Below are positions 8,077 through 37,461 of a DNA stretch of 50,633 bases, piece after piece. Each line of letters begins with the position of its first letter. Within the stretch, counting starts at the first letter, position 1. The notes below the pieces were generated by a model that had not been told where the DNA came from, made no database searches, and saw nothing but the letters and a program-made list of their open reading frames with translations. Source of the DNA: a plasmid. A program made the translations under genes and the position numbers. The stretch lies in the sequence record NZ_CP025194.1; one strand, written 5' to 3'.

Positions 8077-8175
8077 GGCTCTTCAGACGAGGACCATCGG
8101 CTTGATAGCGTCAGAAGGCCAAACGGTCGTTTGGCCTCTTGCTACAAAGCTCCGAATGCCCACAAATGAACGGGT

Positions 8176-10425: not shown

Positions 10426-10444
10426 CCCGTTCATCCCCTCAGGC

Positions 10445-11274: not shown

Positions 11275-11402
11275 CCCGCAAGATATCGGCGCCGGAAGGA
11301 TGTCGGCGGGCTAATCGCGTGGTTCCTCGTCGCTTGTTGACTTGTGCGACGTTGACGAGAAGCATAATCGGTTGAGCGCCGCTAAAATTAGGGAGATAGG
11401 TC

Positions 11403-12659: not shown

Positions 12660-12725
12660 TCAGCTTGCGACCAAGTATGTCGGCAGACCTAGGCAGCTGC
12701 CTTTAGCCGAGCGTGCCGCCTGGTC

Positions 12726-13963: not shown

Positions 13964-14037
13964 GCAGGCAGCCTGTCAATCGGCATTGAATGGGGACCCC
14001 AGATCGGCGCGCAAAAGGGACCCCTCTTGTAAGGCGT

Positions 14038-16264: not shown

Positions 16265-16378
16265 CCCAGCCCTGGCTCCCGATCATCCCGGGAACCACTG
16301 TGAACCCCGCCGTCAGTGGGGTCCCGTTTGGACGCCGATCACCCCTCCAACAGGGTTCCTATTCCATGCCGTTCCACA

Positions 16379-16615
16379 GTCGTGCGGTGTGCGGGCGAGA
16401 GCACCTGCCTGCGTCGGTCCTTTCGAGAAGCCCAGCACGACTACCTCAGCGTTCGGATTCCCCCACGCGCAGGGATTGGCGGTGATGCGCCAGTTCGTGC
16501 TGCCGGTCCGGCTCGCGTCGAACACCACCGCCTCGCCACCGAAGCAGGCGGTGCAGGCGACGCGGCCGTGGTCGGGAAGACGCCCCTCACCCGATGGCTG
16601 CATGTCCATCAGCAT
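16379..16615 (-). pseudogene. Putative zinc-ribbon (MqsA/YgiT-like) antitoxin candidate, C-terminus removed by IS21 copy I
   Basis: The ORF 16313..16687 starts overlapping the DUF4258 gene (Met candidates at 16615/16609/16603), contains a CTAC cysteine pair, and reads into the IS21 terminus. Confidence 0.3.
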
Positions 16616-21305: not shown

Positions 21306-21417
21306 CCAGTGGAGCTGGGCGACGGAGCCTCGGGACAGGTAGGGGGTGCGCCCCAGGCGAAGCTTGCTCCCGGCGATCCGGAAAAGATATACTGCCGGGA
21401 TATACACGGAGGAGAGC

Positions 21418-21642
21418 ATGCCCGCCCGCACGACCCTGTTCCTGTCCAACCGCTCCCAGGCCGTGCGCCTGCCCAAGGGCGTGGCCTTCGGCGAGGGCGT
21501 GCGCGAGGTGGTGATCCTGCGCGACGGTCCCCGCCGCGTCATCGCCCCGGCCGATGCGCTGTGGGACGACTTCTTCGCAGGGCCCGGTGTAGACCTGGAT
21601 GATCGCCAGCAGCCGGCGATGCGGGAACGCGAGGCGCTGTGA
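21418..21642 (+). CDS. vapB: VapB-type antitoxin (second module)
   Basis: MPARTTLFLSNRSQAVRLPKGVAF. RBS ggagga at 21408. Confidence 0.7.
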   Translation: MPARTTLFLSNRSQAVRLPKGVAFGEGVREVVILRDGPRRVIAPADALWDDFFAGPGVDLDDRQQPAMREREAL

Positions 21643-22049
21643 CGCTGCGCTACCTGCTCGACACCAACCTGTGCATCCGGGTGCTGCGCGATCGCCCGGC
21701 CGGCCTGCGGGGGCGTTTCAACGCGGAGGCCGCGGCGCTCTGCACCTCGGACGTGGTGCTCTACGAGCTGCTCTACGGGGCGGAGCGCTCAGCCCGGCCC
21801 GCCGAGACGCGGCGCGAGGTGGAGCGCTTCGTGGCCAGGCTGAGCGTGCTGCCCTTCGACGGTGACGCGGCGGCGCACACGGCCGAGATCCGGGCGAGCC
21901 TGGAGCGGCGTGGCGGGGTGATCGGTCCCTACGACCTGATGATCGTGGGCCAGGCGCGCAGCCGCGGGCTGGTGGTGGTGACCGGCAACCTGAGCGAGTT
22001 CGGCCGGGTGGAGGGTCTGCGCTGCGAGGATTGGCTGGCCGGGGCCTGA
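21639..22049 (+). CDS. vapC: PIN-domain toxin VapC (second module)
   Basis: YLLDTNLCI..DVVLYELLYGAERS..GPYDLMIVGQARSRGLVVVTGN. GTG start overlapping the vapB stop. Confidence 0.75.
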   Translation: MTLRYLLDTNLCIRVLRDRPAGLRGRFNAEAAALCTSDVVLYELLYGAERSARPAETRREVERFVARLSVLPFDGDAAAHTAEIRASLERRGGVIGPYDLMIVGQARSRGLVVVTGNLSEFGRVEGLRCEDWLAGA

Positions 22050-22117: not shown

Positions 22118-25100
22118 CTAACCCTGATCTGCCCACCGCGGGTCGGCTAGCGCAGCATCCAACTCTCGGCCAGTCAGCCGAGATTTGACTTGGCTTGGTC
22201 CGAGGTTTTCTCGGAATTCCCGAAGGTCCGCAATGTGATGGCCCTCCCAATCCGGATAACCTCCAAGTCGCTCAAATACATTCTGAAGGCGATGGGCAGT
22301 CGGAGTCTGTTCGCTCGCTAAGCGGTAAAACTTTCCGTTTAGGTCGTCAGTATCTGGCTCAAAACAAATTAAAAGCCGGCCAAGCTCGTCAATCAATCGG
22401 AGGCGTACAGCTTCATTCTGGGCCACAGCTTTTGTTCTGTCGCCAGCTTCAAATTGCTGTACCATCTTCGCAACCTTACTCTGTGCAGCTATGCGCAGCT
22501 TCGCGCACGCGGTCTGCCAAGCTCCTGTCGGGACATTTTGCCCATCCCAAGACGTAACTAGAACCTTTAGGTCGGAGAACGAGCTGACCTCCTGTATGCT
22601 CGCACCTTCCAACCAAGCGCAGAGAGTAACCCGGAATGCGCCTGCCTCAGCCGAAACAAGCAGAAGCGGTAGCCGCTCACCAGGTTGCTGAAGCAGTCGG
22701 TGCATCGTGTGCTGGCGCTGATCGAGACCATCCACGCAAGCGGCTTCTGCGCTGGTTGTTATCGCAGATGGGTGGGTTACTAAGCAGAGTGGACCGTCGC
22801 CAATTCGATGCAGGGCATTGCTCTCGGACGTCACTCGCACACCCGTCCCGTCCAGAGCTGCGAGAAGCGCCTCGGTATCGCTCGCCAAGACTAGGCCTGC
22901 CTCGACGGCCATCGGTACAGGTTCGTCCTCGGGGAATGCCTGCATCAAGGTTGGATTGGCGCGGATCTCGTCTGCGGCTCGGCCCAGGGCTTCTTCGTCA
23001 ACTTCCTCGCGGCCGATCAGCATGCGCAATGCCTGCGACAGCACGGGCTGCATCGGTCCCACGAAGGTTTCGAAAAGCCCGCAGCGCGACGCAAGTGCCT
23101 TGTACACCCTCTCATCGATGCTGTGCTTGAGGTAGAGGTTGACCACGGGTAGAATAGGCAGCTCCTGCCCGATGCGGTCGATACGCCCAATCCGCTGCTC
23201 GACCTTCGACGGGTTCCAAGGCAGGTCAAAGTTGACCAAGGCGCCGGCGGCCTGAAGGTTGAGCCCCTCGCTTGCGGCATCCGTGCAGACAAGAACCTTG
23301 ATGGTGCCGTCACGGAGCGCCTTGGTGACCACTTCCTTCGAGGCGGGAACCCAACCGTTCCCTGACCGTAGCGCCCCGCCTTCACCGGAATAGGACGCCA
23401 CTGACGCGCCGAAGGCACCGACGAGGGCATCGCGCAGATACACCATCGTGTCGGAGTAGCCGGTGAAGATCAGAACAGCTCTGCCGTCGCCGGTAAGCTG
23501 TTTGGTTCGTGCCACGAGCCGGTCACGCTTCGTATCTAGCGCGCCAAGCGCGGCGATGCGTTCCAGAAGCTCTTCGACCTCGACGAGCTCTGCGCGTGCT
23601 TCCTTGGGCGTCTCGGGTAGCGCCGACGTTAACTTCACATTCAGCAAGTCCTCCAGCTCCTGGGCGTCCTCGATGTCGAGAACACTTGGATCCGGAGCAT
23701 GCTGGGCGATCACGGCCTTTAGACCAGTCGCGCGACGCTCCAGGCTCTTGCGCAGCGCCACCGGCGAGCTTGCCGCGCGCCGGCGGTAGATCGTCATTAC
23801 AAAGCCCTTGCCGGGCTTCTGGTTCTCCAGTTCGTTGAAGCGGCGGTCGATATAGCTCGTGACCGCCTCATAGACTTCGCGCTCCTCCGCAGTTTCGAAG
23901 CCAAACGGATCGTCCTTCACATCCCTTGTTGGCGGCGGGCGATCGAGCAGGCCCATCTCGAAGTACTTGCGCAGAGTGCGCCTCGTGTTGCGGTGCATCC
24001 GCCTGACCAAAGGCGAGCAGACGCGCATCCATCGCACCGCATCCTGCCTTGATGCCGCGGGCAGGAAACGGAGCGCCTTCGCGAAGGCATCGGCATCATC
24101 TATGGGGGGCAAGCCCAGGCTGGCGGGCGCAGGTGGACAATGTGGCGTTGCGGCCAGGGTGCGCGCCAAGGCCATGCCTTCGCTGCGCGGCAGAGTGCCG
24201 CGGTCCAGGCTTGCCAGCGCCTCATGGAAGCGGCGGACGATGTGGAAGCCGGAAAGCCACAGGCCACCCTCACCGAGCACCTGCAGAAGATCCCACGGCT
24301 CCCATGGATGCGTCTGCATCGGCGTGGCCGACAGGATCATAAAACTGCGCGCCTGACCCTTCATCTGCATGTGACGCAGCAGGCCGAGCAGCAAGGTCGG
24401 CGCGTTGAACTCGCCCTCGATCTGGCTGGCGCGTCGAGCGGCATGACCCTCGTCCAGCAGCACGAGGTCCCAGGGTGTAGCGGCCATTAAGGTCGGAAGA
24501 TTGCCCTCCGAGCGCGCGGTCTCGCGACTCAGCAGCAGCAGGGGCTCCTCCAGGGCCTCGGCCAGACTAGAGACCGCCTGCTTCGTGCCATCTGGCCAAA
24601 CGAGCGTCTTCGGCCCCTCCATCCGCGGCACGCGCAGGCCGCCCTTCTCACGGAGTTCTCCCTGCCACTGCGGTAGCAGGTTCGCGGGGGGCAAGATCAG
24701 CGCGCGCTTCACCCCGCGGCCTGCGAGCAGCCGTCGTAGCGTAAGGATCGCCTCGACCGTCTTGCCCATGCCTACCTCGTCACAGAGCAGGCGTCCCTCG
24801 GGCCAAGCCGCGGCGGTCTCTGCCACCACATGCCGCTGGTGCGGCCAAAGCGTGACGGGGGCCATCGCATCGCAGGTCGCCGCTCCGCCGTCTGGCATGT
24901 ACGGCGCTTCGAGGGCGTAGCCCCAGAGCATCGCAGCTCGCTGGCGGCGTCGGTTATCTTCGGGCTCCGATACCGGCGGCGCTTCCGGCGCTAGCTTGAT
25001 CAGCTCGTCTCGCACCGCGTCGGGCAGCGATACGGTCACGACGGCAGGGTCGTCGCCCGACCACAACAGCTCGAACTCATCGCGGAAGTGAGCATGACGC

Positions 25101-25678
25101 TCGGGATCATCCCAGCTTCGACTGATCTCCAGCTTCTCGTAATTGCCGCGAATGCCCTTAGCACTTTCGTTGCCACTTCCGGCGAAGATCACCGCGTCTT
25201 CAGCCGCGTCGACAAACAGCCCAAACTTGGCGTGCAGGATGCCATCGCCCTGCCGCATGACGCCTACCTTCATCTCCAGCCAGCCTTCGCGTGCCAACCA
25301 AGCCAGCATCTCGAGCCGGCCCTTCTGCAAAGCGGTCTCCGGCGTGCCAAGACGCGCGAGAAGAGCATCGATCAGAGGTGTGTCATCGCCGGCATCTAGC
25401 AGCGCCCGAACGTCGAGCTCGGCCAGTTCCTCATTTACCAGAAGACGTAGCGCTGGCTTCTTGGTGATGGCGCCATCCACGATCCGCTGGATGAACGCGC
25501 CGAAGCCGGAAGCTGCGGCCGCGAGTACAGAAGATGAGAAATAGGCGCAGCAGCGGTCGTAGCGTACCGCACAGCGCAATCCGGGCTCGTAGAGTCGGGC
25601 GACCAACTGGCCATCTGGCGCACGCAAGAAGCGAGGCCAGGCAAACTCCCTGAGGGACGAAGGTGCGGTGGAGCTCAA
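22118..25678 (-). CDS. PLD-family (single HKD) nuclease domain fused to an SNF2-family helicase (1186 aa). Putative defence effector.
   Basis: HKD motif LHAKFGLFVD..GSGNESAKG. SNF2 motif I LLCDEVGMGKTVEAI, motif II VLLDEGHAARR, motif VI QRIGRIDRIGQ. Last gene of the minus-strand operon. Confidence 0.8.
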   Translation of the reverse strand: MSSTAPSSLREFAWPRFLRAPDGQLVARLYEPGLRCAVRYDRCCAYFSSSVLAAAASGFGAFIQRIVDGAITKKPALRLLVNEELAELDVRALLDAGDDTPLIDALLARLGTPETALQKGRLEMLAWLAREGWLEMKVGVMRQGDGILHAKFGLFVDAAEDAVIFAGSGNESAKGIRGNYEKLEISRSWDDPERHAHFRDEFELLWSGDDPAVVTVSLPDAVRDELIKLAPEAPPVSEPEDNRRRQRAAMLWGYALEAPYMPDGGAATCDAMAPVTLWPHQRHVVAETAAAWPEGRLLCDEVGMGKTVEAILTLRRLLAGRGVKRALILPPANLLPQWQGELREKGGLRVPRMEGPKTLVWPDGTKQAVSSLAEALEEPLLLLSRETARSEGNLPTLMAATPWDLVLLDEGHAARRASQIEGEFNAPTLLLGLLRHMQMKGQARSFMILSATPMQTHPWEPWDLLQVLGEGGLWLSGFHIVRRFHEALASLDRGTLPRSEGMALARTLAATPHCPPAPASLGLPPIDDADAFAKALRFLPAASRQDAVRWMRVCSPLVRRMHRNTRRTLRKYFEMGLLDRPPPTRDVKDDPFGFETAEEREVYEAVTSYIDRRFNELENQKPGKGFVMTIYRRRAASSPVALRKSLERRATGLKAVIAQHAPDPSVLDIEDAQELEDLLNVKLTSALPETPKEARAELVEVEELLERIAALGALDTKRDRLVARTKQLTGDGRAVLIFTGYSDTMVYLRDALVGAFGASVASYSGEGGALRSGNGWVPASKEVVTKALRDGTIKVLVCTDAASEGLNLQAAGALVNFDLPWNPSKVEQRIGRIDRIGQELPILPVVNLYLKHSIDERVYKALASRCGLFETFVGPMQPVLSQALRMLIGREEVDEEALGRAADEIRANPTLMQAFPEDEPVPMAVEAGLVLASDTEALLAALDGTGVRVTSESNALHRIGDGPLCLVTHPSAITTSAEAACVDGLDQRQHTMHRLLQQPGERLPLLLVSAEAGAFRVTLCAWLEGASIQEVSSFSDLKVLVTSWDGQNVPTGAWQTACAKLRIAAQSKVAKMVQQFEAGDRTKAVAQNEAVRLRLIDELGRLLICFEPDTDDLNGKFYRLASEQTPTAHRLQNVFERLGGYPDWEGHHIADLREFRENLGPSQVKSRLTGRELDAALADPRWADQG

Positions 25679-25729
25679 GGGTAAGCACCCTCTCCGAAGT
25701 ACGGTCCGGGTAGCGGCAAGGGCGCGAAG

Positions 25730-27055
25730 CTAGGCGCAGCCACAGGGCATCCCCACGATGGCTAAGGGGAACCAGGGATGACGTCCCGGACTAGCGACGC
25801 CGGCAACGTGCGCCGGGCGTCCGCTCCCCGGGCAAGCCGCGCATACCTTCAACGGCCAATCGAGTGCCTTGAACGTAGGTCCCGGCTGATCGCGATCGCC
25901 ACCTGCTCGCAGCAGCACCAGCACGTCTGCCCAGTGCCGCATGTGATCGTAGGCAGCGCGATTCGTCTCTGCACCGTGGTGCGGGGCTGTCGCCACGATA
26001 GGAAGGTCCGGTGGCCTGCTGTGCCTTAGGAAGGATTGGGCGAACCGCCGGCCATCCCCGAGGGGCGAATCGCCGCAGAAGAGAACGCCCAGACGAGACA
26101 ATTTGGGTGGCGCAAGAAATACTAGGCTTTGTCGGTTGATGACCGTCAACCTCATGAGGAAGCTCAGCTTGAACGGCGCTGGTGCCTGCTCCCTCGCATT
26201 GATCGGCTCAAGAAAGCCGCACACGCCGCCGGAGGGGCGTCTCATGCTGGCAAAGGCATGATAGTCAAACCATCGGATCCGGAGCCGTCGTGCGATCGCC
26301 GCGGCAGCGATCCGACGTATCGCCTCCACGGTGTCAACCATTCCAAGCCACGCTGTTGCCGCTGCCGTACTCAGGCGGCGCTTCCTCTTCCGATATAGGA
26401 TGCGCGACCTTGCCGACTGGAATGCAGCATCCGCGACCTTCTCGATGGGCAAGTTCTTGGCCCCACGGAGCTCGGCGAACCACGGAGGGTCGTCCGTCGG
26501 CTCTGTCGTGCCGAGATCGATCTCGGGATCATCCCAATCCTCTCCGCCTGCAGGCACCTCATCGGAAGCATCTGCGCGATCAGCATCGCGAACGGGCGGC
26601 GCCTCCTGTCCTAGTCCGGAGATATCGGCAGGGACTGGGTCGGTAGATTCTTCGAAACGAGTGAAGGGTGCCTCAACGAGTGGGTCTGGCGCGTTCTCGC
26701 GGATGAGGGTGTCCAGCTCCCTGATCAATTGATCCACGAAGCCCTTCGGGTTCTTCATGAGTTCCGGTACGACGCCGACCCATCGCCCCGGCAACCACAC
26801 CTGCCCTATCCCGCCGGGCCAATGTCTGAGCACATCCGGCAGGCCGCCCGCGTGATCGCCATCGCCATGGGTACAGACCACAATGTCCAGCGGCTTGATC
26901 GCTGGAAGATGCGTGGCAAGGACGCGGGTGACATTGTCCTTCTTCCAACCGCCGTCGACCAGGACAGCATGGCCACGCCGACGCAACAGGAAGGCCTCAC
27001 CGCTGATCGGGAGTGCGAGCACCTGGTCGCACATGGCGGCGGGCACGGCGCTCAT
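25730..27055 (-). CDS. Metallo-beta-lactamase-fold protein (441 aa)
   Basis: VVCTHGDGDHAGG (HxHxDH-like metal-binding motif) near the N-terminus. Its stop overlaps the upstream methyltransferase gene by 4 bp. Confidence 0.6.
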   Translation of the reverse strand: MSAVPAAMCDQVLALPISGEAFLLRRRGHAVLVDGGWKKDNVTRVLATHLPAIKPLDIVVCTHGDGDHAGGLPDVLRHWPGGIGQVWLPGRWVGVVPELMKNPKGFVDQLIRELDTLIRENAPDPLVEAPFTRFEESTDPVPADISGLGQEAPPVRDADRADASDEVPAGGEDWDDPEIDLGTTEPTDDPPWFAELRGAKNLPIEKVADAAFQSARSRILYRKRKRRLSTAAATAWLGMVDTVEAIRRIAAAAIARRLRIRWFDYHAFASMRRPSGGVCGFLEPINAREQAPAPFKLSFLMRLTVINRQSLVFLAPPKLSRLGVLFCGDSPLGDGRRFAQSFLRHSRPPDLPIVATAPHHGAETNRAAYDHMRHWADVLVLLRAGGDRDQPGPTFKALDWPLKVCAACPGSGRPAHVAGVASPGRHPWFPLAIVGMPCGCA

Positions 27056-30000
27056 TCCTCCTCGTCCTCCTCTCCCTCATCGTCATCCTCATCTTCGATC
27101 TCCACCTCCTCGGCATCCTCCGCGCTGGGCATGGCCGATTTGGGGAGCAGGTCGAGCACCGCCTGGTCAGGCTTCTTCTCCGTCCAGTCAGGCGGGGTCA
27201 GGCCGAAGACGGGTTGCAGCATGGCGTGCCAAGCGCGGAACTCGGCGAACTTCTGTGCCACCGCGTTCTTCTCGCGGCGCAAGGCAGGTGGAGCGGCGCG
27301 CAGCAGTGCTTCGATCAGCCGGACAATCGGGTCGCCGAGCTTGATTCCGTGCCGGGTGGTGAAGGAGCGTGCGGCGCCGATGCCTGCTGCACCGCCGCCA
27401 GCATCAACATAGGTGAGGGCGAGGGCCTGCGCCTTGTCGAGATGCGTGCGGAAGACCGTGTCACGTGGATGGATCTTCAGCGCTTCGGTCTTCTTGATCC
27501 GCTTGCCCTTGCCGGGCTCCCAGCCGAACAGCAGTTGCTGGGCCTCGGCTTCGGTGAGCGGCTCGGCGCGCCTTCGGTTGGCAGCGGAGAGGATGTTCAC
27601 TTTGTCCGCCTTCACGGCGATCAGGCCCGCCTGTTCAAGGCTGGAGACGTCCATGCCGACCGCGTGGCCGAGCAGCTTCGCTTCGTTGAAGCGGAACTCG
27701 GCAGCGCTTAGTGTTGCCCAGCAGAGCAAGGCGAACTGCGCCTCGGCCTCGACGCCCTGCAGACCGGCCTGTGCCAGTTGGCGGATGCGCCAGCCGGCGA
27801 CCGCATCGGCCGCGATATCGATGGCTGCGCCAACGTTGACAGGCTCGCCGGTGTCCGTGCGGACTTGGTCGTAGGCCGAGAAGACCTCCATTGCCGGACC
27901 GAAGCTGCCAACGAGCTGGTCCACCGGGTTCAGGCCCTCTGCCGAGAGCCGCTCGGCGGCTGCCTCGGCGGCGGTGCGGATGCGGGCCTGCATCGCCGTA
28001 TCGAAGTAGCCGGTACCGGCGTGATCGGGGCGGACCCGAGCGACGAGGATGACGGTGGACTGGGCCGCGTTCTTCTTCGCTTGGTGGAGGCTGTGCTCGC
28101 TCTCGGTCTTGACCGGCCAGGTCGCAGTGATGGTGAAGCCTGCCTCGATGAGAGACGCAAACAGCGCCTCCCAGGCTTCCTGCTTCTTGTGCGTGAACAT
28201 CACGGTTAGCACGCCATCTTGCCGCAGCACGCGATGCGCTTCGGCGAAAACCTTTGTCATGAGCGACTGGTAGTGCGCCTGCGCGGCGGCCGCGGCCTCC
28301 TTTGCCGTCTTGAAGCTCGAGCGGAAACGCGCGTCGTTCTTCACCGCTTCATCAGCGTTCTCGCACAGCAAGGAAGAGAACCATTCGGGGCGGCGGCTGC
28401 CTTGACTACGCTTCAGCCAAACGTAGAAGAAGTCGGCCAACTCGCTGTACTGGACATTATCAGAGTACGGCGGGTCAACAACGACAGCGTCCAAGGATTT
28501 GTCGTCGAGATGAATTAGGGACGTCGCTGAGCCCTGCGAGCAGACAATCTCGGAGCGCGCAGTTGCCATCGGCAACTTTGCCACGCCTCCATACGCTTCA
28601 ATGACGCTGTCGATTGCCCACGCCAAACCACCGGTTCCCTGTACCGGCATCATCTCTGTAAAGGTGAGCTTGAAAGAGAAATCGTGGCGATCGAAGACAC
28701 CCCGGATAACCTGATGCGACGTATGCCACGAGGCCATCATGCAATTGTAGTTCGTGAGCTTGTCGATCACGAAGGCCAGCAGATGGACTATCGCTTCCCC
28801 AGCGTCCTCGCCTTCGTCAGCAAGGATTGCGGGACGGAGCGCCTGCAGTTCCTCCATCAGCACGCCGAAACCGAGTAGCTGCCGGGGGCTAAACATGTCC
28901 GCCCAGCGGGGCATTCCGTAGGTTCGCGGTCGAGCGTCCGTCGTGGTCAGAGGATATTCCTCGGCCGGAATCAGATTCCGCGTTTCCCAATCACCGCGCC
29001 ACTGCTGCAACTGCGCCTCCGCTGCGTCGAGCGCCTCAAGGTCAGCGTTCTGTGGGGGACGGAACTTCAGACCCTGCGGTGTCTTCAACGCAACCGCATA
29101 GAGGGCGCTGCCCATCCGTCCGGCCTTAGCCTGCGCCTTGATCCAGTCGCCTGGGATGACTTCGCCGGTGAAGAGACTGATGCCCTTCCCCTTGGCGTAG
29201 GTCCGCGCCGGCGGTGTGGCGAGCGCGGCGGGGCCGACACCGATCGGCCTAATTTCCGTCGTCCAGGTGCCGGCTGCCTTGTCCACCACGGGCTTCGCGA
29301 CTACCGGGATGCCGCCCTTAGGCTTCAGCAAATGCCAATCCGGCACAAGCGGCGTCATGTGCCCTGTCGTCGGGCAGGGAATGGTGCGCGCGAAGATGTA
29401 GCAGAGCGGCGGAATGCCACCGAAAGCCGGATCGACAACGGTCGGGAAGAAGCGTTCCATCTTTGCATTGAAGCGCTTCCGCCAGATCGCCCCCCAGTGG
29501 CGAGCACGATCCGCAAGCTTCGGCCCGTAGCGGAACGGGTAGTCGAGCGTCGCTTCCAGGACGCTGCACGCCACAGGATTGTATTCGTTAACAAGGGTTG
29601 GAAAGCCGAGGCGTGCGCTCTCTAATGGGATTGAGCCGCCGCCGGACATTGGGTCCATGACCGTTGGCAGATGGCCCCAGAGGGCCTTCGCTGCTTCGTG
29701 TGCTGCAGCGATGTCCTTGGACTTTAAGGGAGCGCGAAAGGCGCGCGTCCCATGCGGGTTATCGATCTTGGTCCCGCTCGCCCGCGCGGCGGCGAGCATC
29801 TCCTCGCCGGCAATGATGTAGGCGGACGGCCCCCAGAATCCCATCAGCCGCTCGAAGGTATCCTTCGGGAAATCCGCCGGCAGCACGCTCGCCAGGACCG
29901 CGGCGCGGCTGGCAGCCAGCGGTCGACGCGCCCACCAAATGTGAAAGCGCTTGTCGGGTGGCTGCTGGCCAGTGCTCCGCTCACGGATGCATTCAACACC

Positions 30001-30078
30001 GATGGCTGCGGCCGGTAGCCACTCCTCGATCAACAGCCGTGGCCGTTCTGCCTTGTTGCCGTCCGGCATGTCTGACAT
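27052..30078 (-). CDS. DUF1156-type N6-adenine DNA methyltransferase (1008 aa)
   Basis: N-terminal RLLIEEWLP..IGVE..ER motif typical of DUF1156/COG1743 proteins. Catalytic DPPY motif (VVDPPYSDNVQYSELADFFYVWL). Acidic C-terminal tail. Start taken as MSDMPDGNK at 30078. Confidence 0.75.
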   Translation of the reverse strand: MSDMPDGNKAERPRLLIEEWLPAAAIGVECIRERSTGQQPPDKRFHIWWARRPLAASRAAVLASVLPADFPKDTFERLMGFWGPSAYIIAGEEMLAAARASGTKIDNPHGTRAFRAPLKSKDIAAAHEAAKALWGHLPTVMDPMSGGGSIPLESARLGFPTLVNEYNPVACSVLEATLDYPFRYGPKLADRARHWGAIWRKRFNAKMERFFPTVVDPAFGGIPPLCYIFARTIPCPTTGHMTPLVPDWHLLKPKGGIPVVAKPVVDKAAGTWTTEIRPIGVGPAALATPPARTYAKGKGISLFTGEVIPGDWIKAQAKAGRMGSALYAVALKTPQGLKFRPPQNADLEALDAAEAQLQQWRGDWETRNLIPAEEYPLTTTDARPRTYGMPRWADMFSPRQLLGFGVLMEELQALRPAILADEGEDAGEAIVHLLAFVIDKLTNYNCMMASWHTSHQVIRGVFDRHDFSFKLTFTEMMPVQGTGGLAWAIDSVIEAYGGVAKLPMATARSEIVCSQGSATSLIHLDDKSLDAVVVDPPYSDNVQYSELADFFYVWLKRSQGSRRPEWFSSLLCENADEAVKNDARFRSSFKTAKEAAAAAQAHYQSLMTKVFAEAHRVLRQDGVLTVMFTHKKQEAWEALFASLIEAGFTITATWPVKTESEHSLHQAKKNAAQSTVILVARVRPDHAGTGYFDTAMQARIRTAAEAAAERLSAEGLNPVDQLVGSFGPAMEVFSAYDQVRTDTGEPVNVGAAIDIAADAVAGWRIRQLAQAGLQGVEAEAQFALLCWATLSAAEFRFNEAKLLGHAVGMDVSSLEQAGLIAVKADKVNILSAANRRRAEPLTEAEAQQLLFGWEPGKGKRIKKTEALKIHPRDTVFRTHLDKAQALALTYVDAGGGAAGIGAARSFTTRHGIKLGDPIVRLIEALLRAAPPALRREKNAVAQKFAEFRAWHAMLQPVFGLTPPDWTEKKPDQAVLDLLPKSAMPSAEDAEEVEIEDEDDDEGEEDEEE

Positions 30079-30086
30079 CCCCACTC

Positions 30087-30530
30087 CTACTTCACAGCTT
30101 CGGTGATGATGCGCAGCGCCCTCACCCAGCGCAGCCCGCGGCCATCCTGCATACGGCCAAACCAGGAGGCCGCCTCGGTCGCGTCCGCGCTGTGGAAATG
30201 CTCGGCCGACTTCGACAGGCGCCGGGCTTCGCGCAACCCTCTCGCCACGATCGCGAAGCCCGCGACGCGCGCGCCCCAATCCGCATCGAGCGGCTGATAA
30301 GGTCCTGGCTCCAGCTTCGCCTTGCCGCCATTCGCCTTCAGTGCCGAGCGCAGCAGGCCAGATGAGGCGGTCAGCGCCAAAGGCGACAGTGCCGCCACCC
30401 GGTCGAAGCGCTCCTCCATCCGGTCATTCACGCGGCGTCGATAGATGATGGCGGCGAGCCCTTCGCGCCGCTGCACCACGCGCAGGGCAAAAGGTGCTGT
30501 ACGCGTTGCCTGCACCTGAAGTGATGCCAT
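30087..30530 (-). CDS. Hypothetical protein (147 aa) packed between the upstream gene and the methyltransferase
   Basis: The ORF exactly fills the 30079..30534 gap (5-bp and 8-bp spacers), suggesting translational coupling in the operon. Confidence 0.35.
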   Translation of the reverse strand: MASLQVQATRTAPFALRVVQRREGLAAIIYRRRVNDRMEERFDRVAALSPLALTASSGLLRSALKANGGKAKLEPGPYQPLDADWGARVAGFAIVARGLREARRLSKSAEHFHSADATEAASWFGRMQDGRGLRWVRALRIITEAVK

Positions 30531-30534
30531 CGTG

Positions 30535-31734
30535 TCAGGCCGAGAGCGGCGCGAAACGCGCCTCGATGGTGGCCGTGTCTGGCAGCTGCATGAAGAGGCT
30601 CCGCAAGAGGGCGCCCAGGTCAGCCTTGCCGTCCTTGCCGAAGCCTAGCACCACAGTCACGCGGATCGAGCTGCCCGGCGCCAAGGCATTCCCCAGGGTC
30701 TGCGCCATAGTCAGAGGTTTAATGGCCGCAGCAACCTTTGTCTCCGCGACGCTGAAGGCCAGCTTGCCGCCATCCTTCATGTCACCTGTCAGTTCAGCTT
30801 CGACGGTGATGTTCGTGGCACCAAGCGGGCTAGCTGCGCCAAGCGCCTTCTGCGCATCGGCGGCCGTCAGGCAGGTGATGCGGAGCGAGAGCAGATTGCG
30901 CTTATCGGCGTAGCCCGACGCAACTTCAGTGTCCGTAGTCGAGGCCGGCCCAGCTCCCTTGGGCGGCGGTTGGGGGATTGGTAGTCCGCCAGGAGGCGAC
31001 ACAGGTTCGTGGGCGCCAGACTCCTTCAGCCAGCCCTGCGCCGCTGCGCTGCCGGACTCGGCGACACGGATCGCCTCGTCCATCGGAAGCGTGGTCAGCT
31101 TGCGCCCTTCATCGCGCCTGCGATGGCCGTTGGTCGTGTAGACTGCCCCCTTGGCGTCGAAGGCCGTCCCGTCCTCTTGCCTCACCGCCAGCTTGCCGTC
31201 GGCGACAGCACGCAGAATGGAAGCGCGCACGACCGTGGCGTTCGGCACCAGGCGCAGACCCTGCGCCGAGAGGAAGCGCCGGTGCAACGCCGATGCCGAG
31301 CGTGCCTCCGGTTCGTCCGCCAGAGGCACGGCGCCGCCGAACACCAGTTCCAGTAAGCGATCGGGGAAGAGGCTATCCGTGTCGCCGTAGATGAGTTTCC
31401 GGTCCTCGACGAAGGCTTTCACAGCGTCCTGGCCGGAGGGAAGCTGCATTGGCGGTGTGTCAGGGGGCGTGATGAAACGCTCGTCGATCGTGAGGACAGC
31501 ACCATCGGCAAGCAGGAGGCGATTGAAGGCCCGTGCTGCTTCCAGACGCGTCGCCTTCCGCAGTTCCGGGATTTGCTTCTTGAGCTGCTCGCGCGCCAGC
31601 TTACCGCCTTCGCTGTTCGTCTGCTCGCTTTCGATCGCCTCGGCCGCCATTAGGCGCCGAATGCGCTCGATCGCCTTCTCCAGCCCGTTCGTGTCGGGCG
31701 CCACGGCGAGGATGGCGTTGCGGTAGGTGCGCAT
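30535..31734 (-). CDS. Hypothetical protein (400 aa from the Met at 31734). Possibly the C-terminal remnant of a larger gene cut by the IS6-B copy 4 insertion.
   Basis: The reading frame stays open back into the IS terminus at 31756. No nucleotide-binding motifs. Confidence 0.35.
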   Translation of the reverse strand: MRTYRNAILAVAPDTNGLEKAIERIRRLMAAEAIESEQTNSEGGKLAREQLKKQIPELRKATRLEAARAFNRLLLADGAVLTIDERFITPPDTPPMQLPSGQDAVKAFVEDRKLIYGDTDSLFPDRLLELVFGGAVPLADEPEARSASALHRRFLSAQGLRLVPNATVVRASILRAVADGKLAVRQEDGTAFDAKGAVYTTNGHRRRDEGRKLTTLPMDEAIRVAESGSAAAQGWLKESGAHEPVSPPGGLPIPQPPPKGAGPASTTDTEVASGYADKRNLLSLRITCLTAADAQKALGAASPLGATNITVEAELTGDMKDGGKLAFSVAETKVAAAIKPLTMAQTLGNALAPGSSIRVTVVLGFGKDGKADLGALLRSLFMQLPDTATIEARFAPLSA

Positions 31735-31755
31735 CGTCTCCGCACCTGGCGTGTC

Positions 31756-32585
31756 GGCATTGTCACGTTGTTTGGGGACCGAGCAAGTTTGACCGCGAGG
31801 CGGAGTTTGCGTGACCTTACGCCGCCATATGGGCACACGTCTCCTGCCGCCAGATCCGAAAGGCCTTGGAGCGCTCGCGCCGGTATTGATCGGCGGCCAT
31901 CAGGTGCCGCCGCGGACGGAAGTGGCCATAGATCATCGCGTGCGCCGACAAAAACCGCTGGGCTTGCCCGGCTGACTTGAAGCGCTGCATCGCGCGTTCT
32001 CGACGTCGGGTCGGCCTATGGGAATTCTCGGCACGATTGTTCAGGTAGCGGCTGGTCCGATGCTGCACACCGGGTAGGACCTCTCGCTGTGCAACGCCAT
32101 AGCTGCGGAGCCCATCGGTGACGATCTTGCGGGGTCTATACTGGAGGCCCACCAGCAGGCGCTTGAAGAAGCGTTTGGCGGCCGTGGCATTGCGGCGCTC
32201 CTGCACCAGGATGTCGAGCACGACTCCGTGCTGATCCACCGCGCGCCAGAGATAAAAGAGCTCGCCGTTGATCTTCAGGTAAACTTCATCCATGTGCCAG
32301 GTGTCGCCCGGTCTTGGCCGCCGCTTGCGCAGCTTGGCCGCGAACTCCGTGCCGAAGCGGAGGCACCAGCGACGGATACTCTCGTAGCTGACCACTACGC
32401 CCCGCTCGGCCAGGATCAGCTCGATGTCGCGTAGGCTCAGGCTGAACAGGTGGTAGAGCCAGACAGCATGCTGGATGACCTCGGCCGGGAAACGGTAGCC
32501 GGGGTAGGTGGTGGGCTCGGACGGCATGCCGCCAGCTTCGCCTGACGAGTTCGTTCCAGCCAGAGCTGGCCAACGTGACAATGCC
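31756..32585 (-). mobile_element. IS6-family IS type B, copy 4 (inverted)
   Basis: 830 bp with terminal repeats GGCATTGTCACGTT at both ends. Transposase identical to the other copies. Confidence 0.85.
31817..32527 (-). CDS. tnp: IS6-family transposase (type B, copy 4)
   Basis: Identical 236-aa product. Confidence 0.9.
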   Translation of the reverse strand: MPSEPTTYPGYRFPAEVIQHAVWLYHLFSLSLRDIELILAERGVVVSYESIRRWCLRFGTEFAAKLRKRRPRPGDTWHMDEVYLKINGELFYLWRAVDQHGVVLDILVQERRNATAAKRFFKRLLVGLQYRPRKIVTDGLRSYGVAQREVLPGVQHRTSRYLNNRAENSHRPTRRRERAMQRFKSAGQAQRFLSAHAMIYGHFRPRRHLMAADQYRRERSKAFRIWRQETCAHMAA

Positions 32586-32855: not shown

Positions 32856-33527
32856 ATGCTTTGCGTCATTCAGTGTGCCGGATCCAAGCAGGCAAATGCA
32901 GCCACCCTCCCTACAATGAGCGGTCGTCGGGTGATGTTCGTAGCTCGTCCGGATGCAGCACCTCCAGAGAAAGGCGTCCTGTACGTTCATCCGGACAACA
33001 TATCGGACCTCACGGGCATCACATGGCGTCAGCGTGTCATGGCAGTGAATACCGGCCGCGAACCCGATCCAGGCCTCTGGATTGCTGGGAAGCTCTATCG
33101 TCCGAAAGCCTATGCACTCCTACTGGAAAAGCTGGGAATCGAAAGACTTTTCATCCTGTCTGCCGGCTGGGGACTCGTGCGTGCCGACTTTCTGCTTCCG
33201 GACTACGATATCACCTTCAGCACCTCGGCCGAACCCTGGAAGCGTCGGCGCGCCAGCGACAAGTTCTCGGACTTCAATGCCCTGGAGAGGACGCAGGAAG
33301 ATATCGTCTTCCTGGGCGGCAAGGACTACCTGCCCCTGTTCCTGCGCCTGACCAGGAGTGCTGCGGGACGGCGCCTCGTAGTGTACAACTCGGCTAATCC
33401 CCCAGTTGCATGTGGTTGTGCTCTGACCCGCTACCCGACAACCCGCCGGACCAACTGGCACTATGACTGCGCCGAGGCTCTCGCGGCAGGGACCTGGCAT
33501 CCTGATTTCGAGGCCGTCCCTTCCTGA
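32856..33527 (+). CDS. Hypothetical protein (223 aa) in a lower-GC islet
   Basis: ORF only, with codon usage unlike the flanks. No recognised motif. Confidence 0.3.
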   Translation: MLCVIQCAGSKQANAATLPTMSGRRVMFVARPDAAPPEKGVLYVHPDNISDLTGITWRQRVMAVNTGREPDPGLWIAGKLYRPKAYALLLEKLGIERLFILSAGWGLVRADFLLPDYDITFSTSAEPWKRRRASDKFSDFNALERTQEDIVFLGGKDYLPLFLRLTRSAAGRRLVVYNSANPPVACGCALTRYPTTRRTNWHYDCAEALAAGTWHPDFEAVPS

Positions 33528-33535: not shown

Positions 33536-34294
33536 TCAGACCCTGCTGCCTGCCCGATGCCGCCGTAGCGCGACCCGGCTTGGAGCCAAGCGAGCATCGG
33601 AAACCTCCCTCAGCTTGCGACCATGCATCTCGCGATAGGTCGGTTCCATGATGGAGGCAGAAACCAGCACCTGCAGGGTATCCGGGTCAATCGCGAGAAG
33701 GCCGCAATCGAACAAGGTATGGAGGTCCGCACGAAGCAGCAGTCCGTTGGTAGGATGGTTGGTGGCCTCGCCCCGGTAAGGCAGGATGTGAGCCGCTTCC
33801 AACACGTCCAGTGTGCTGCACCCACTGATCGAACAGCGCGCGCCATACGCCTCGAGCAGATGATCGCGAAAGGCCTTCTGGCCTCGCCGAGCCCTGATCT
33901 CGCGCAGGATCTTCTCGCGGGCATCCACCGTCCCTTCGGGGTCGAAGGCAGTCGTATCGGCGTCGCCGGAGGCCAGCACCGGGAGAACGGCAGCAACTGC
34001 CGCGTTGTCATCGACCTCGACCGTGAAACCCAGACGGGTCAGGGCCCGGCGCACCGTACTCTCGCCGCCGGCGAACTCCGACGCCTTGAGCGGACGTGCG
34101 CCTGGAGAGCGGTAGCCGAACGCCACGCCCAGGATCGCCTTGGAAGCGTAGCGCCGACCATCGTGCAACAACCAATAGGATCGTGCCGGCCCGTAGCCGT
34201 ATTTCGCGAGAAACGCTTCTTCACCAAGACGATCATGTTCCTCGATCGCCCGTAGCACCGGTAGCGGATCGTTCAGCTCGCTGAGAGCGGCCAC
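33536..34294 (-). CDS. HNH endonuclease family protein (HNH_2-like C-terminal domain)
   Basis: C-terminal CSISGCSTLDVLEAAHILPY..NGLLLRADLHTLFDCGLLAI matches the HNH_2 signature seen in McrA-like/type IV restriction-like nucleases. Confidence 0.6.
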   Translation of the reverse strand: MAALSELNDPLPVLRAIEEHDRLGEEAFLAKYGYGPARSYWLLHDGRRYASKAILGVAFGYRSPGARPLKASEFAGGESTVRRALTRLGFTVEVDDNAAVAAVLPVLASGDADTTAFDPEGTVDAREKILREIRARRGQKAFRDHLLEAYGARCSISGCSTLDVLEAAHILPYRGEATNHPTNGLLLRADLHTLFDCGLLAIDPDTLQVLVSASIMEPTYREMHGRKLREVSDARLAPSRVALRRHRAGSRV

Positions 34295-34309: not shown

Positions 34310-34954
34310 TCAGGCTGCATCGTATCCTGCGGCGGCGAAGTAGTTGGTGCATTCAGTGGGCGTGAAGGTGTCGATGATCCGGCCGATGGTGCTCCAGAGG
34401 CCTTCGACGCTGCGCTCGGCGGCCTTGCGGAGGCTGGCCTTCAGCTTGGCGAAGGCGTTCTCAATGGGGTTGAACTCGGGGCTGTAGGGCGGAAGGTAGA
34501 GCAAGCCTGCCCCGGCGGCTTCGATTGCAGCCCTGACGCCCGCGCCCTTGTGGCTGCCCAGGTTGTCCATGATAACGATGTCACCGGGCGCCAGTTCGGG
34601 TACCAGCACCTGGTCAACGTAGGCTTGGAAGGCGGCGCCGTTGATCGGCCCGTCGAGCACCATTGGCGCGACCATGCCGCTGTTGCGCAACCCGGCGATG
34701 AAGGTCGTGGTCTTCCAGTGGCCGTGCGGGATTGCGGCCCGCAGCCGTTGGCCACGACGTGCTCGACCATGGGTGCGCGCCATCTTCGTCGACGCCCAGG
34801 TTTCATCGATGAACACCAAGCGGTCCGGTTCGAGATCGGGCTGGCTCTCGAACCAGTCCCAGCGCTGTTTCAGGATGTCCGGCCGATCCTGCTCCGCGGC
34901 GTGCGCGGTCTTTTTTTGCGCGTGATCTGGTGTCGGCGAAAGAACCGCCAGATC
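34310..34954 (-). pseudogene. IS630/Tc1-family DDE transposase C-terminal fragment, N-terminus removed by IS21 copy II
   Basis: LVFIDETW..IVIMDNLGSHK..LPPYSPEFNPIENAF (DDE triad context). The ORF begins at the IS21 terminus at 34955. Confidence 0.7.
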
Positions 34955-35030
34955 TGTCAATCGGCACTGAATTGGGACCCCAGATCGGCACGCAAAAGGG
35001 ACCCTCTTGTGAGGTGTGTTGAGGGGGCGT

Positions 35031-35759
35031 TCAGGCGCGGTTCTTGAATCGCCAACTATCGTTGCCGGTCTCGACGATGTCGCAGTGGTGAGTGAGGCGG
35101 TCGAGTAAGGCAGTGGTCATCTTGGCGTCCCCAAAGACGCTGGGCCATTCACCAAAAGCGAGGTTGGTGGTGACGATGACCGAGGTCTGCTCGTAGAGAC
35201 GGCTGACAAGGTGGAACAGCAACTGGCCGCCGGACTGGGCGAATGGCAGATAGCCGAGCTCGTCGAGGACAACGAAATCCAGGCGGCAGAGATGATCGGC
35301 GATGCGCCCTTGTCGTCCGGCCCGGGTCTCGGCCTCGAGGCGGTTCACCAGGTCAACCACGTTGTAGAACCGTCCGCGCGCTCCATCGCGGATGCAGGCC
35401 CGGGCAATGGCGATAGCCAAATGAGTTTTGCCCGTGCCGGTGCCACCGACGAGCACCACGTTGCGCTGCTGGGCCAGGAACCCGCCACCCGCGAGATCAC
35501 GGACCAGAGCCTCGTTAACCGGGGTACCGTCGAACCCGAACTCGTCCACGTCCTTGGCCAGCGGCAGCTTGGCGGTGGCGATCTGATACTTGATCGAGCG
35601 CGCCTACTTCTCGGCGATCTCGGCCGAGACAAAGTCGCCGATAACCTGCTGTGGCTCATGCTGGCGTTTGACGGCGGTCGTGATGATGGCGTCAAACGCC
35701 GCGCGCATGCCGTAGAGCTTCAGCTCGCCCATGGTGGCGAGGATAGCGGTGCGTTCCAT
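35031..35759 (-). pseudogene. istB: IstB with premature stop (CAG->TAG at ~35597)
   Basis: gcctacttctc here versus gcctgcttctc in copy I, giving EK* in place of EKQ. The Walker A-containing downstream part is intact. Confidence 0.75.
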
Positions 35760-37258
35760 CAGGGTCCTCTCCTCAGGCTGTCGTAGCGGGTGCAGTCGGC
35801 CAGCGGCGCATGCCGCAGCCGGAGCGCCTCCGGGGTCAGGATGGTCACCGGCGGCGGTGGCTCGCGCTGGCGGGCGAGGATGTTGAGGATGACATCGGCC
35901 GAGTGGACGCCCTCACGCAGCGCCTCGCTGCAAGCGGCCTCAACCGCAGCCAGACCGTCGTCCAACACCCTGGTCAGGATCTCCACCATCTGCCGGTCGC
36001 CATCGGTGGCTGTGGCCAGCTTGCGGCGGACCCGTTCCAGTGCACTGGGGAGCAGCCAGTCCTTGAACGGTGCCCCGTTGCGCAGCGCTCCAGGTTTGCG
36101 CGCCAGCACGGGCACGTAGTGCCAGGGGTCGAACACCGTCTGGTCCCGGCCGAACACGCGCCGGTGCTCGCCCACCACCCGGCCGTCCTGGCGCAACTCG
36201 ATCCGCTCGGCATAGGCCCGGATCTCGACCGGCCGCCCCACCGCGCTCGCCATCACCGAGTACTTGTTGTTGTCGAACCGCACCAGGCAGGTCTTGGATA
36301 CCGCGGCAGGCACGGCATGGAACCCGTCGAACCGTCCGGCATAGGGCACCAGGCTTGGCCGCTCCGCCTCGAACGCCTCCCAGACGGTCCGCTCCCTCTG
36401 CTCCGGATGCCGATTGGCCCGGGCATGGGACACGCACCGGTCCAGCAGAAGGGCGTTCAGCTCCTCGTAGCTCCTCACCCGCAGTCGCGGCGTAAAGAAC
36501 CGCTCCCGCACCAGCCCGACCTGGTTCTCGACCTGACCTTTCTCCCAGCCTGAGGCCGGAGTGCAGGCCACCGGCTCGACCAGGTAGTGGCTGCACATGC
36601 GCAGGAAACGCCGGTTGTAGGCACGATCCCGTCCCACCAGGATCGCGTCCACCGCCGTGCGCATGTTGTCGTAGATGCCCCGCGTGCAGGTGCCGCGAAA
36701 GAAGGCGAACGCCCGGTCATGGGCGTCGAACACCATCTCCTGCGTCTCGCGCGGATAAGCGCGAACGAACAGCATCCGGCTGTAGCATAGCCTCACATGC
36801 GCGACCTTGACGGTTACCGTCGTGCCGCCGATCAGCACGACCTCGTGGCTCCAATCGAACTGGTATGCCTCGCCCGGCGCGAAGCTCAGCGGCACGAAGG
36901 CTGCTGCCACCGCCGTCGCCCGTGACGCCTGCCACCCCCGCGCATGTCGCCGGACCGCGTCGTAGCCGCCCTCGTACCCCAGCTCACGCAGCGTCTCGTA
37001 GACCCGCACCAGCGTCAGCCGCTCGCGCCGCGGCCGCGCCTCGTTCGCCTCCAGCAGGCGCTCCAGCTCGGCCTGCCACGGCCCCAGCTTGGGCTGCGGC
37101 TGCCGCGCCCGGCTGTAGCGGAATTCCGTCTCCCCGGACCGCAGAACCTTCCGGACCACCTTTCGCGAAATCCCGAGCTCACGACAGATCGCCTTGATCG
37201 ACTTGCCCTGCACCCGGTGCAGGCGCCGGATCTTTGCCACTGTCTCCACGACCAGCAT
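35759..37258 (-). CDS. istA: IS21-family transposase IstA (copy II, intact, 499 aa)
   Basis: Same length as copy I with a few substitutions. Confidence 0.9.
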   Translation of the reverse strand: MLVVETVAKIRRLHRVQGKSIKAICRELGISRKVVRKVLRSGETEFRYSRARQPQPKLGPWQAELERLLEANEARPRRERLTLVRVYETLRELGYEGGYDAVRRHARGWQASRATAVAAAFVPLSFAPGEAYQFDWSHEVVLIGGTTVTVKVAHVRLCYSRMLFVRAYPRETQEMVFDAHDRAFAFFRGTCTRGIYDNMRTAVDAILVGRDRAYNRRFLRMCSHYLVEPVACTPASGWEKGQVENQVGLVRERFFTPRLRVRSYEELNALLLDRCVSHARANRHPEQRERTVWEAFEAERPSLVPYAGRFDGFHAVPAAVSKTCLVRFDNNKYSVMASAVGRPVEIRAYAERIELRQDGRVVGEHRRVFGRDQTVFDPWHYVPVLARKPGALRNGAPFKDWLLPSALERVRRKLATATDGDRQMVEILTRVLDDGLAAVEAACSEALREGVHSADVILNILARQREPPPPVTILTPEALRLRHAPLADCTRYDSLRRGP

Positions 37259-37372
37259 CCCAGCACTGGCTCCCGATCATCCCGGAAACCACTGTGAACC
37301 CCGCCGTCAGTGGGGTCCCGTTTGGACGCCGATCACCCCTCCAACAGGGTTCCTATTCCATGCCGATCCACA

Positions 37373-37461
37373 TTCGTGCCGCTCTGGAAGCGGCAGGAGT
37401 GGAATTCATCCCGGAGAACGGAGGAGGCGCCGGGGTGCGCCTGCGGAAGCAATCCTCGTGA
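37373..37461 (+). pseudogene. C-terminal fragment of an HTH-type regulator (…ALEAAGVEFIPENGGGAGVRLRK) abutting IS21 copy II
   Basis: Conserved C-terminal tail seen in XRE-like regulators. Only ~29 residues remain outside the IS. Confidence 0.3.

Follow-up and report, generated by a model that had tools for sequence, protein, structure and literature searches.

The window considered here is a stretch of 50,633 nucleotides (sequence record NZ_CP025194.1) from a plasmid of Roseomonas mucosa; its sole megablast matches are Roseomonas plasmids. Within it lie five co-directional open reading frames (ORFs) on the minus strand, g1 to g5, which an earlier reading of the sequence (the original prediction) had proposed as a modification-based anti-phage operon. 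In 5′ to 3′ order they comprise a remnant of a DUF499 ATPase gene (g1, 30535..31755), a gene for a small DUF7680 protein of 147 amino acids (aa) (g2, 30087..30530), a gene for a DUF1156 N6-adenine methyltransferase resembling the MtsC and HmaB proteins discussed below (g3, 27052..30078; 1008 aa), a gene for a metallo-hydrolase of the metallo-β-lactamase (MBL) fold (g4, 25730..27055; 441 aa), and a gene for an MtsD-like helicase-nuclease that joins a phospholipase D (PLD) domain with an HKD motif to a Swi2/Snf2 motor (g5, 22118..25678; 1186 aa). The end of an 830-bp insertion sequence (IS) of the IS6 family (31756..32585, minus strand) abuts the cut ATPase gene. ORF calls and translations confirm all five genes at the predicted positions, closely packed: 4 nucleotides separate g1 from g2 and 8 separate g2 from g3, the start of g4 overlaps the end of g3 by 4 bp (ATGA), and 51 nucleotides lie between g4 and g5. 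The same genes have been kept together in other genomes, so their grouping here is by no means accidental. A scan of the operon for promoters and terminators returned signals at or below shuffle expectation and is uninformative in such high-GC DNA.

When 185,579 species genomes were scanned with an alignment of the MBL family, intact cassettes of the same kind were retrieved. In Humitalea rosea (L004) and Falsiroseomonas (L009), the gene order is a full-length DUF499 ATPase (972 and 969 aa, respectively), DUF7680, DUF1156 methyltransferase, MBL, and PLD-Snf2; other intact cassettes are found on the R. mucosa chromosome CP025061.1 (L077) and on metagenomic contigs, and their proteins are 83–94% identical to those of the window. 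The Humitalea cassette occupies 3626–14935 of L004 (from NZ_QKYU01000020.1), and the R. mucosa one occupies 3606–14923 of L077, at about 1,098,170–1,109,490 of CP025061.1. Homologous five-gene cassettes therefore do recur elsewhere, and those that carry the MBL gene form a subclade centred on the Acetobacteraceae. A four-gene form without the MBL gene is common in the same clade. The operon of a Skermanella plasmid encodes DUF499, a 159-aa protein, DUF1156, and Snf2; its large proteins are 27–37% identical to the window's, and its 159-aa protein matches DUF7680 at 150.7 bits.

In these intact relatives the DUF499 ATPase gene is the first of the operon, and comparison with it reveals what has happened to g1. 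The original prediction had listed g1 and g2 as unknowns and suspected that g1 was the C-terminal end of a DUF499-like ATPase severed by the IS6 copy at 31756, leaving the system decayed; that suspicion was well founded. When the full-length 969-aa Falsiroseomonas ATPase was compared with the window by tblastn, only residues 564–969 matched (31755..30538, 94% identity), and its N-terminal half, which contains the AAA+ module, was not found anywhere in the window. Thus, g1 is the C-terminal remnant of a ~970-aa DUF499 (MtsA/HmaC-like) AAA+ ATPase cut by IS6: it keeps only the last 406 codons, and the ~563 N-terminal residues, AAA+ module included, have been removed. The ORF as called by program is longer, as it starts at a GTG at 31836 inside the IS6 copy and adds 27 IS-derived residues; homology stops at 31755. 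The remnant gives a weak Pfam DUF499 match that spans profile positions 517–576 of 1024 only, and the full-length homologues (969–972 aa) score 64–65 bits against DUF499 and 198–202 bits against the PADLOC HmaC profile, over their N-terminal ~620 residues.

The agent of this truncation is well defined. The IS6 transposase scores 224.9 bits against the NCBIfam profile transpos_IS6 (NF033587; cut-off 125), and the element has the hallmarks of its family: a DDE transposase, a length of ~0.8 kb, terminal inverted repeats, and multiple identical copies. Three copies of the 830-bp unit are 100% identical (31756–32585, 3042–3871, and 10445–11274), and a partial copy lies at 12723–13228. At the junction with g1 the terminal repeat ends ...CAACGTGACAATGCC at 31756, and the end sequence of the element is the reverse complement, GGCATTGTCACGTTG.... 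A sister plasmid, NZ_CP044118.1 (R. mucosa FDAARGOS_658), carries a deeper IS6 deletion. There, with g4 and g5 100% identical to those of the window, that same end of IS6 joins the methyltransferase gene at codon ~269, such that g1, g2, and the 5′ third of g3 are gone. Relative to the window, the deletion covers ~29275–31755, and the remainder is 100% identical (locus 5569–8565; the methyltransferase is annotated as a 687-aa DUF1156 protein). The locus has therefore been eroded stepwise from the IS6 side, an outcome typical of adjacent deletions by IS6/IS26-type elements.

A further fragment lies on plasmid p1-AD2 of R. mucosa AD2 (NZ_CP025188.1; L002 15062–15561 and L003 1–5036), where an orphan DUF7680 gene with 94% aa identity to g2 precedes a methyltransferase gene of which no more than the first ~16 codons remain. 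Beside it is a block of small genes, one of them for a Lar restriction-alleviation protein, that has the look of the early region of a prophage. The orphan represents a further remnant of such a cassette.

The architecture of the intact relatives is a known one. A DUF499 ATPase, a small protein, a DUF1156 N6-methyltransferase, and a Swi2/Snf2 helicase with an N-terminal HKD domain define type 2 of the BREX-related (BR) systems that centre on DUF499 (Rakesh & Krishnan, Nucleic Acids Research 2026, PMC12839542). This type-2 system was discovered under the name Gao_RL and has since been characterised as MANTIS, whose four proteins are MtsA (the DUF499 AAA+ ATPase), MtsB (DUF3780), MtsC (the DUF1156 N6-methyltransferase), and MtsD (a PLD-superfamily 2 helicase-nuclease) (bioRxiv 10.64898/2026.09.23.753747). 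A canonical operon in Lichenicola (L075) is annotated DUF499, DUF3780, anti-phage DUF1156, and PLD anti-phage. The cassettes studied here share its gene order and orientation, with a protein of ~150–200 aa between ATPase and methyltransferase, and both kinds are found on mobile islands and plasmids. Their three large proteins are collinear homologues of the Lichenicola proteins: the ATPase is 24% identical over 634 aa, the methyltransferase 25% over 640 aa, and the effector 28% over 955 aa, including the N-terminal PLD domain. Two claims of the original prediction do not survive this comparison. The locus had been called unlike canonical BREX and distinct in architecture, whereas its layout is that of published type-2 BR systems, and the PLD-SNF2 fusion, then taken as a novelty, is the defining effector of the MANTIS-type family.

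The locus also differs from MANTIS. Identity between the collinear proteins is only 24–28%, and the locus scores far below the NCBIfam equivalog cut-offs for the methyltransferase and the effector (NF042963 and NF042964; 181 versus 1000 bits and 303.5 versus 1100 bits), which places the clade outside MANTIS in its strict definition. In addition, the C-terminus of the effector extends ~265 aa further, there is an additional gene, for the MBL protein, the window's ATPase is cut by IS6, and the small subunit belongs to DUF7680, with no significant similarity to DUF3780. Collinear homology combined with a different small subunit suggests that, at the level of sequence, the DUF7680-type cassettes are a sister clade of MANTIS.

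The small subunit, which the original prediction left as an unknown, can now be placed in Pfam DUF7680 (27.5 bits; cut-off 24). Its family is compact, with 374 matches at 58–95% identity and only 101 clusters among 1.84 billion representatives. In every context that we read, the DUF7680 gene lies directly after DUF499 and before DUF1156, and it sits where MANTIS operons have MtsB (DUF3780). No Pfam match to DUF3780 was seen for g2 even at E ≤ 10. Two direct profile comparisons with hhalign, the second using a more diverse alignment drawn from the search of 1.84 billion representatives, gave non-significant probabilities of 0.9–2% (E of 0.06–0.02); the aligned stretch covers 33–84 columns in the C-terminal helices, around the motifs EAAWW..M and R.LRIL. 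An AlphaFold2 model of g2 (mean confidence score, pLDDT, of 88) has a four-stranded sheet and five or six helices and matches no fold in the PDB, and a sequence search of the PDB returned chance matches only (E of 0.45–1.5). Nonetheless, the position, size class, and alpha+beta make-up of g2 resemble the published description of DUF3780 (MtsB), which leaves room for a remote homology between the two families. The name DUF7680 is absent from the literature that we searched, and no homologue that might serve as an anti-defence decoy occurs among 50,697 phage records.

The methyltransferase matches Pfam DUF1156 at 59.3 bits and, more weakly, UPF0020 and N6_N4_Mtase; in PADLOC it scores 278.8 bits against HmaB and 128.8 bits against DUF1156_MTase. 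Its DPPY motif is at aa 535–538 (28465–28476). Together with the DUF1156 N-terminus, this gives g3 the features of an MtsC-type N6-adenine methyltransferase. The score against NCBIfam DUF1156_antiphage is 181 bits, and identity is 25% over 640 aa to the Lichenicola MtsC-type protein (named 'anti-phage-associated DUF1156' by PGAP) and 36.5% over 895 aa to the Skermanella protein. The program-called ORF runs to 30279, and homologues start at the ATG at 30078. Nothing was matched in a PDB sequence search. In sliding-window comparisons g3 contains two divergent segments, ~28480–28930 and ~29380–29810; nucleotide identity falls to 0.60–0.75 against Falsiroseomonas in one and to 0.58–0.66 against Humitalea in the other. 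Judging from this pattern, the segments probably hold target-recognition determinants that differ between cassettes.

In the effector, the single HKD motif (HAKFGLFVD...GSGNES) occupies aa 149–172 (25163–25234) and is followed by SNF2 motifs I (DEVGMGKT, 24758–24781), II (DEGH, 24443–24457), and VI (QRIGRIDRIGQ, 23165–23197). Pfam matches are to SNF2-rel_dom (41.9 bits), Helicase_C (58.6 bits), and PLDc_2 (25.1 bits, just below the cut-off of 27). The PADLOC PLD_Helicase profile is matched at 207 bits and NCBIfam phospholipD_antiphage at 303.5 bits. Residues 5–892 are collinear with residues 6–873 of the Lichenicola MtsD-type protein at 28% identity, and the N-terminal HKD/PLD domain fused to a Swi2/Snf2 superfamily 2 motor is that of an MtsD. 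A PDB sequence search returned generic Snf2/RapA matches only; no MANTIS structure was among the entries searched. The motifs of all three enzymes named in the original prediction, DPPY, THGDGDH, the single HKD, and SNF2 I, II, and VI, are present in the translations, and Pfam agrees.

The fourth gene has no counterpart in the canonical operons. It matches Pfam Lactamase_B at 40.7 bits and encodes the HxDxDH motif as THGDGDH (aa 62–68, 26852–26872), a conserved HH pair (aa 359–360), a disordered acidic insert (aa 132–175), and a C-terminal CxxC...CxC. Members of its family are ~430–446 aa long and share the invariant residues H63, D65, D67, H68, H359, and H360. The fold is ComEC- and Pce-like. 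Given the invariant metal ligands and this fold, we read g4 as a putative metal-dependent phosphodiesterase, plausibly a nuclease. Profile matches to ComEC_Rec2, Avs1a, and PDC-M48B are weak and all far below the family cut-offs. In contrast to the proteins behind those profiles, g4 is a free-standing protein of 441 aa with a large helical and acidic insert, a C-terminal Cys4, and no membrane domain. As with the small subunit, no homologue was found among the 50,697 phage records, where it might have acted as an anti-defence decoy. The embedded MBL gene, which the original prediction singled out, does remain unusual; no MBL partner is mentioned in either of the two key papers on type-2 BR systems and MANTIS. 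The core architecture is already known, and, as far as we checked, the DUF7680 subunit and the hyper-divergent, coupled MBL gene are undescribed; DUF7680-type loci may nonetheless be among the type-2 BR systems counted in the Nucleic Acids Research paper.

Other known systems resemble the locus less closely. The type-1 BR system, Hma, gives the best PADLOC scores (HmaC for the full-length ATPases and HmaB, 279 bits, for the methyltransferase), and Hma operons also tolerate inserted defence genes (PMC11232893). However, HmaA carries a TUDOR domain N-terminal, and an active PD-(D/E)XK/NOV_C nuclease domain C-terminal, to its Snf2 helicase, whereas g5 has an N-terminal PLD domain and no Pfam match to NOV_C or PD-(D/E)XK, and type 1 has no small subunit where these cassettes have DUF7680; membership in Hma was rejected on these grounds. 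Type-3 BR and BREX systems are recognised by a PglZ phosphatase (plus iSTAND/BrxB and BrxA), and the five ORFs are all assigned to other families and contain no PglZ or Brx match beyond generic helicase and methyltransferase similarity. DISARM class 1 consists of DrmA, DrmB (DUF1998), the PLD protein DrmC, the Snf2 protein DrmD, and the methyltransferase DrmMI. It has in common with the locus an Snf2 helicase, PLD chemistry, and an adenine methyltransferase, and the secondary matches to DrmD and DrmA cover the Snf2 core only. Here the PLD is instead fused to the helicase and the partners are DUF499 and DUF1156. Neither DrmA nor DrmB (DUF1998) occurs in the operon or in the intact relatives, and the original prediction was right to set DISARM aside.

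We estimate a probability of about 80% for the following interpretation: the locus is a decayed DUF499-centred BR type-2 (Gao_RL/MANTIS) cassette from a divergent subclade in which DUF7680 stands in for DUF3780 and an extra ComEC-like MBL gene is coupled to the methyltransferase, and the window copy is predicted to be a harmless relic without methylation or restriction. The first proposal, of a defence cassette that works through modification and has the DUF1156/DUF499 module at its core, is borne out by the domain matches and the intact relatives. In MANTIS, MtsC hemimethylates asymmetric 6-bp sites; this methylation requires MtsB and MtsA, including the Walker A and B motifs of the latter, and restriction requires MtsA–MtsD, with MtsC providing the targeting (bioRxiv 10.64898/2026.09.23.753747). 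Knockout of mtsA or mutation of its Walker A/B motifs causes loss of methylation and is non-toxic, and deletion of MtsA, MtsB, or MtsC each abolishes restriction. By analogy, in an intact cassette the AAA+ ATPase and the small subunit, with DUF7680 in the role of MtsB, would load and activate the DUF1156 methyltransferase, which would mark short asymmetric host sites with N6-methyladenine. Unmodified sites on incoming DNA, read through the same methyltransferase, would then license cutting by the PLD-Snf2 motor-nuclease. The MBL enzyme would most plausibly act as an auxiliary metal-dependent nuclease or phosphodiesterase on invading DNA, or as a backup of the PLD effector. The window copy lacks the AAA+ module that MANTIS needs for both methylation and restriction, and this predicts that it most likely neither methylates nor restricts and is an inactive relic. 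The continuing loss to IS6 on the sister plasmid is in keeping with an absence of selection.

Several points weigh against this interpretation. The mechanism is transferred wholly from a system that is only 24–28% identical, and the role given to the MBL protein is purely inferred. The methyltransferase and effector fall below the Gao_RL equivalog cut-offs and so are not strict MANTIS proteins, the ATPase and methyltransferase score higher on the PADLOC profiles of type-1 Hma than on the DUF499 and DUF1156_MTase profiles, and the comparison of DUF7680 with DUF3780 is non-significant. The MBL family also occurs outside BR cassettes, as a solitary gene in unrelated defence-island contexts, and may be an independent passenger. 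Finally, g2–g5 are intact reading frames, such that residual activity is possible, as is complementation in trans by a chromosomal cassette. This last pair of points underlies the idea that the truncated cassette still functions, either as a reduced restriction-modification-like system of methyltransferase, MBL protein, and PLD-helicase, with or without DUF7680 and the C-terminal ATPase fragment, or when completed in trans by a chromosomal copy. The full-length proteins keep their catalytic motifs, the GTG-start ORF inside IS6 could express an ATPase fragment, an intact paralogous cassette is found on the chromosome of some R. mucosa strains, and HmaA alone has been reported to protect E. coli against T4. 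Nevertheless, we consider a functional copy unlikely, given that methylation and restriction in MANTIS depend on ATP binding and hydrolysis by MtsA and that erosion into the methyltransferase on the sister plasmid argues against selection for upkeep. Still less credible, and in our view very improbable, is a categorically distinct modification-dependent restriction system, unrelated to BREX and to DISARM, whose defining features would be the MBL protein and a novel PLD-SNF2 fusion. The best profile matches do lie below the equivalog cut-offs of the named families and neither DUF7680 nor the MBL partner was met in the literature searched, but the four-gene core is the published BR type-2 architecture, its three large proteins are collinear homologues of type-2 BR proteins, and the MBL-less form is widespread in the same clade.

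The relation of the MBL gene to the rest of the cassette is where the evidence is most divided. Wherever an intact cassette includes the MBL gene (L004, L009, L077, L078, and the P0019 contig), that gene has the orientation of the others, a constant position, and an identical 4-bp overlap with the methyltransferase stop codon; it is also present in three short contigs of metagenome-assembled genomes (MAGs; L005–L007). The MBL proteins embedded in BR cassettes form essentially one clade, with two deep branches and one standalone sequence nested within it, which suggests a single capture and long retention. The lack of a promoter or terminator between the MBL gene and its neighbours is weak evidence in the same direction. 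These observations speak against the view that the MBL gene lies outside the system, as a self-contained defence or selfish gene in an insertion hotspot of the operon, a view that we regard as possible but not probable. In its favour, most members of the MBL family (~430 aa; Pseudomonas, Burkholderiales, Ruegeria, and others) lack BR genes in their vicinity, and all-vs-all clustering of their neighbours outside BR cassettes yielded no conserved partner. Equally close DUF7680-type cassettes lack the gene (R. alkaliterrae L079, L080, L073, and L081), and defence genes inside hmaABC operons are documented (PMC11232893, section 18). The MBL alleles are ~48–71% identical inside cassettes that are otherwise ~85–95% identical. 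Between the window and Falsiroseomonas, nucleotide identity in a sliding window is ~0.85–0.92 over g1, g2, g3, and g5 and drops to 0.44–0.62 over the MBL gene only, with sharp edges, a pattern that points to cassette-like exchange; from sequence comparison, the divergence would reflect either allele exchange or strong diversifying selection. At the opposite extreme, the MBL protein would be an obligate fifth subunit, a metal-dependent nuclease coupled translationally and physically to the methyltransferase as a second cleavage chemistry, with divergent recombining alleles that record an arms race with phage inhibitors, and DUF7680 would be a structurally independent replacement of MtsB/DUF3780. 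This proposal is doubtful in our judgement. In more distant members of the clade, NYN, Schlafen/AlbA_2, or SIR2+Schlafen genes lie between DUF7680 and the methyltransferase, and their presence in the neighbouring slot is consistent with the 'auxiliary/backup effector' pattern reported for BR systems.

Outside BR cassettes, the MBL gene is found next to a Gabija-like pair of an OLD-TOPRIM ATPase and UvrD (L022 5891–11182), a SIR2 and KAP-NTPase pair (L008 2904–11317), a HerA ATPase (L029 8198–11137), and a KAP NTPase (L017 9998–13790), as well as integrases and deaminases. These neighbours suggest that defence islands are a general habitat of the MBL protein.

Among the intact relatives, a gene for a large serine recombinase precedes the cassette (L004 1700–3052, L009 1110–2750, L077 1168–3023, and L079 3648–5506), joined by a DUF2924 gene in L077 and L079. 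The cassette sits beside obg in R. mucosa and Humitalea, and rplU and rpmA also adjoin it in L077. From the recombinase and the site beside obg, the system appears to travel on a small integrative island. Falsiroseomonas has a sixth co-directional ORF (14887–16308; 473 aa) that overlaps the PLD-helicase stop by 4 bp, for which there is no Pfam or PADLOC match and no counterpart in the window. In two of the short MAG contigs the cassette has gaps: in L005 (1858–3951) the MBL gene comes almost directly after the C-terminal part of DUF499, and in L007 (642–3545) only the last ~86 methyltransferase codons separate the DUF499 part from the MBL gene. The absence of g2 and of most or all of g3 reflects either true deletions within the cassette or artefacts of assembly. 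The binning of L007 as 'Microbispora' looks doubtful because its proteins are ~88% identical to those of Acetobacteraceae.

The surroundings of the operon agree with the predicted plasmid setting among toxin-antitoxin modules and ISs. A RepA_C replication gene lies at 45696–46616, a VapBC module adjoins the operon at 21346–22049, and several IS copies are found elsewhere in the window, including an IS21-type element in two 97%-identical copies (13973–16385 and 34954–37379; istA/istB in the annotation of the sister plasmid). Beyond the IS6 copy are a DUF6884-like gene (32856–33527, plus strand) and an HNH_2 endonuclease gene (33536–34294, minus strand), both also on the sister plasmid, which may be another small defence-related pair. 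Positions 1–3872 are identical to 7404–11275, and 3872–7403 match 47103–50633 at 99.97%. On the strength of these identities the contig appears to over-run the circle, and the true plasmid is probably ~43.2 kb (7404–50633), unless a 7.4-kb tandem duplication is real. A gene for a RecD2-like helicase (5079–7346) lies within the duplicated end segment.

These results have implications for a family whose mechanism has only just been characterised and whose restriction step awaits in vitro reconstitution. The window copy offers a clean case of a defence operon being worn away step by step by IS6, here on a plasmid carried by a commensal or opportunist of human skin. The cassettes also raise an annotation issue: they fall below the current equivalog cut-offs, and in the records examined the small subunit goes under 'hypothetical protein', while the names given to the effector are 'SNF2-related' or 'helicase-related protein'. 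With its accessory slot for MBL, NYN, Schlafen, or SIR2 genes, the clade allows the 'auxiliary/backup effector' idea to be put to the test in BREX-related systems. Moreover, a sister clade with a non-homologous or extremely diverged small subunit provides a comparative handle on the role of MtsB; if DUF7680 is indeed independent of DUF3780, ATPase-dependent activation of the methyltransferase would have been solved twice.

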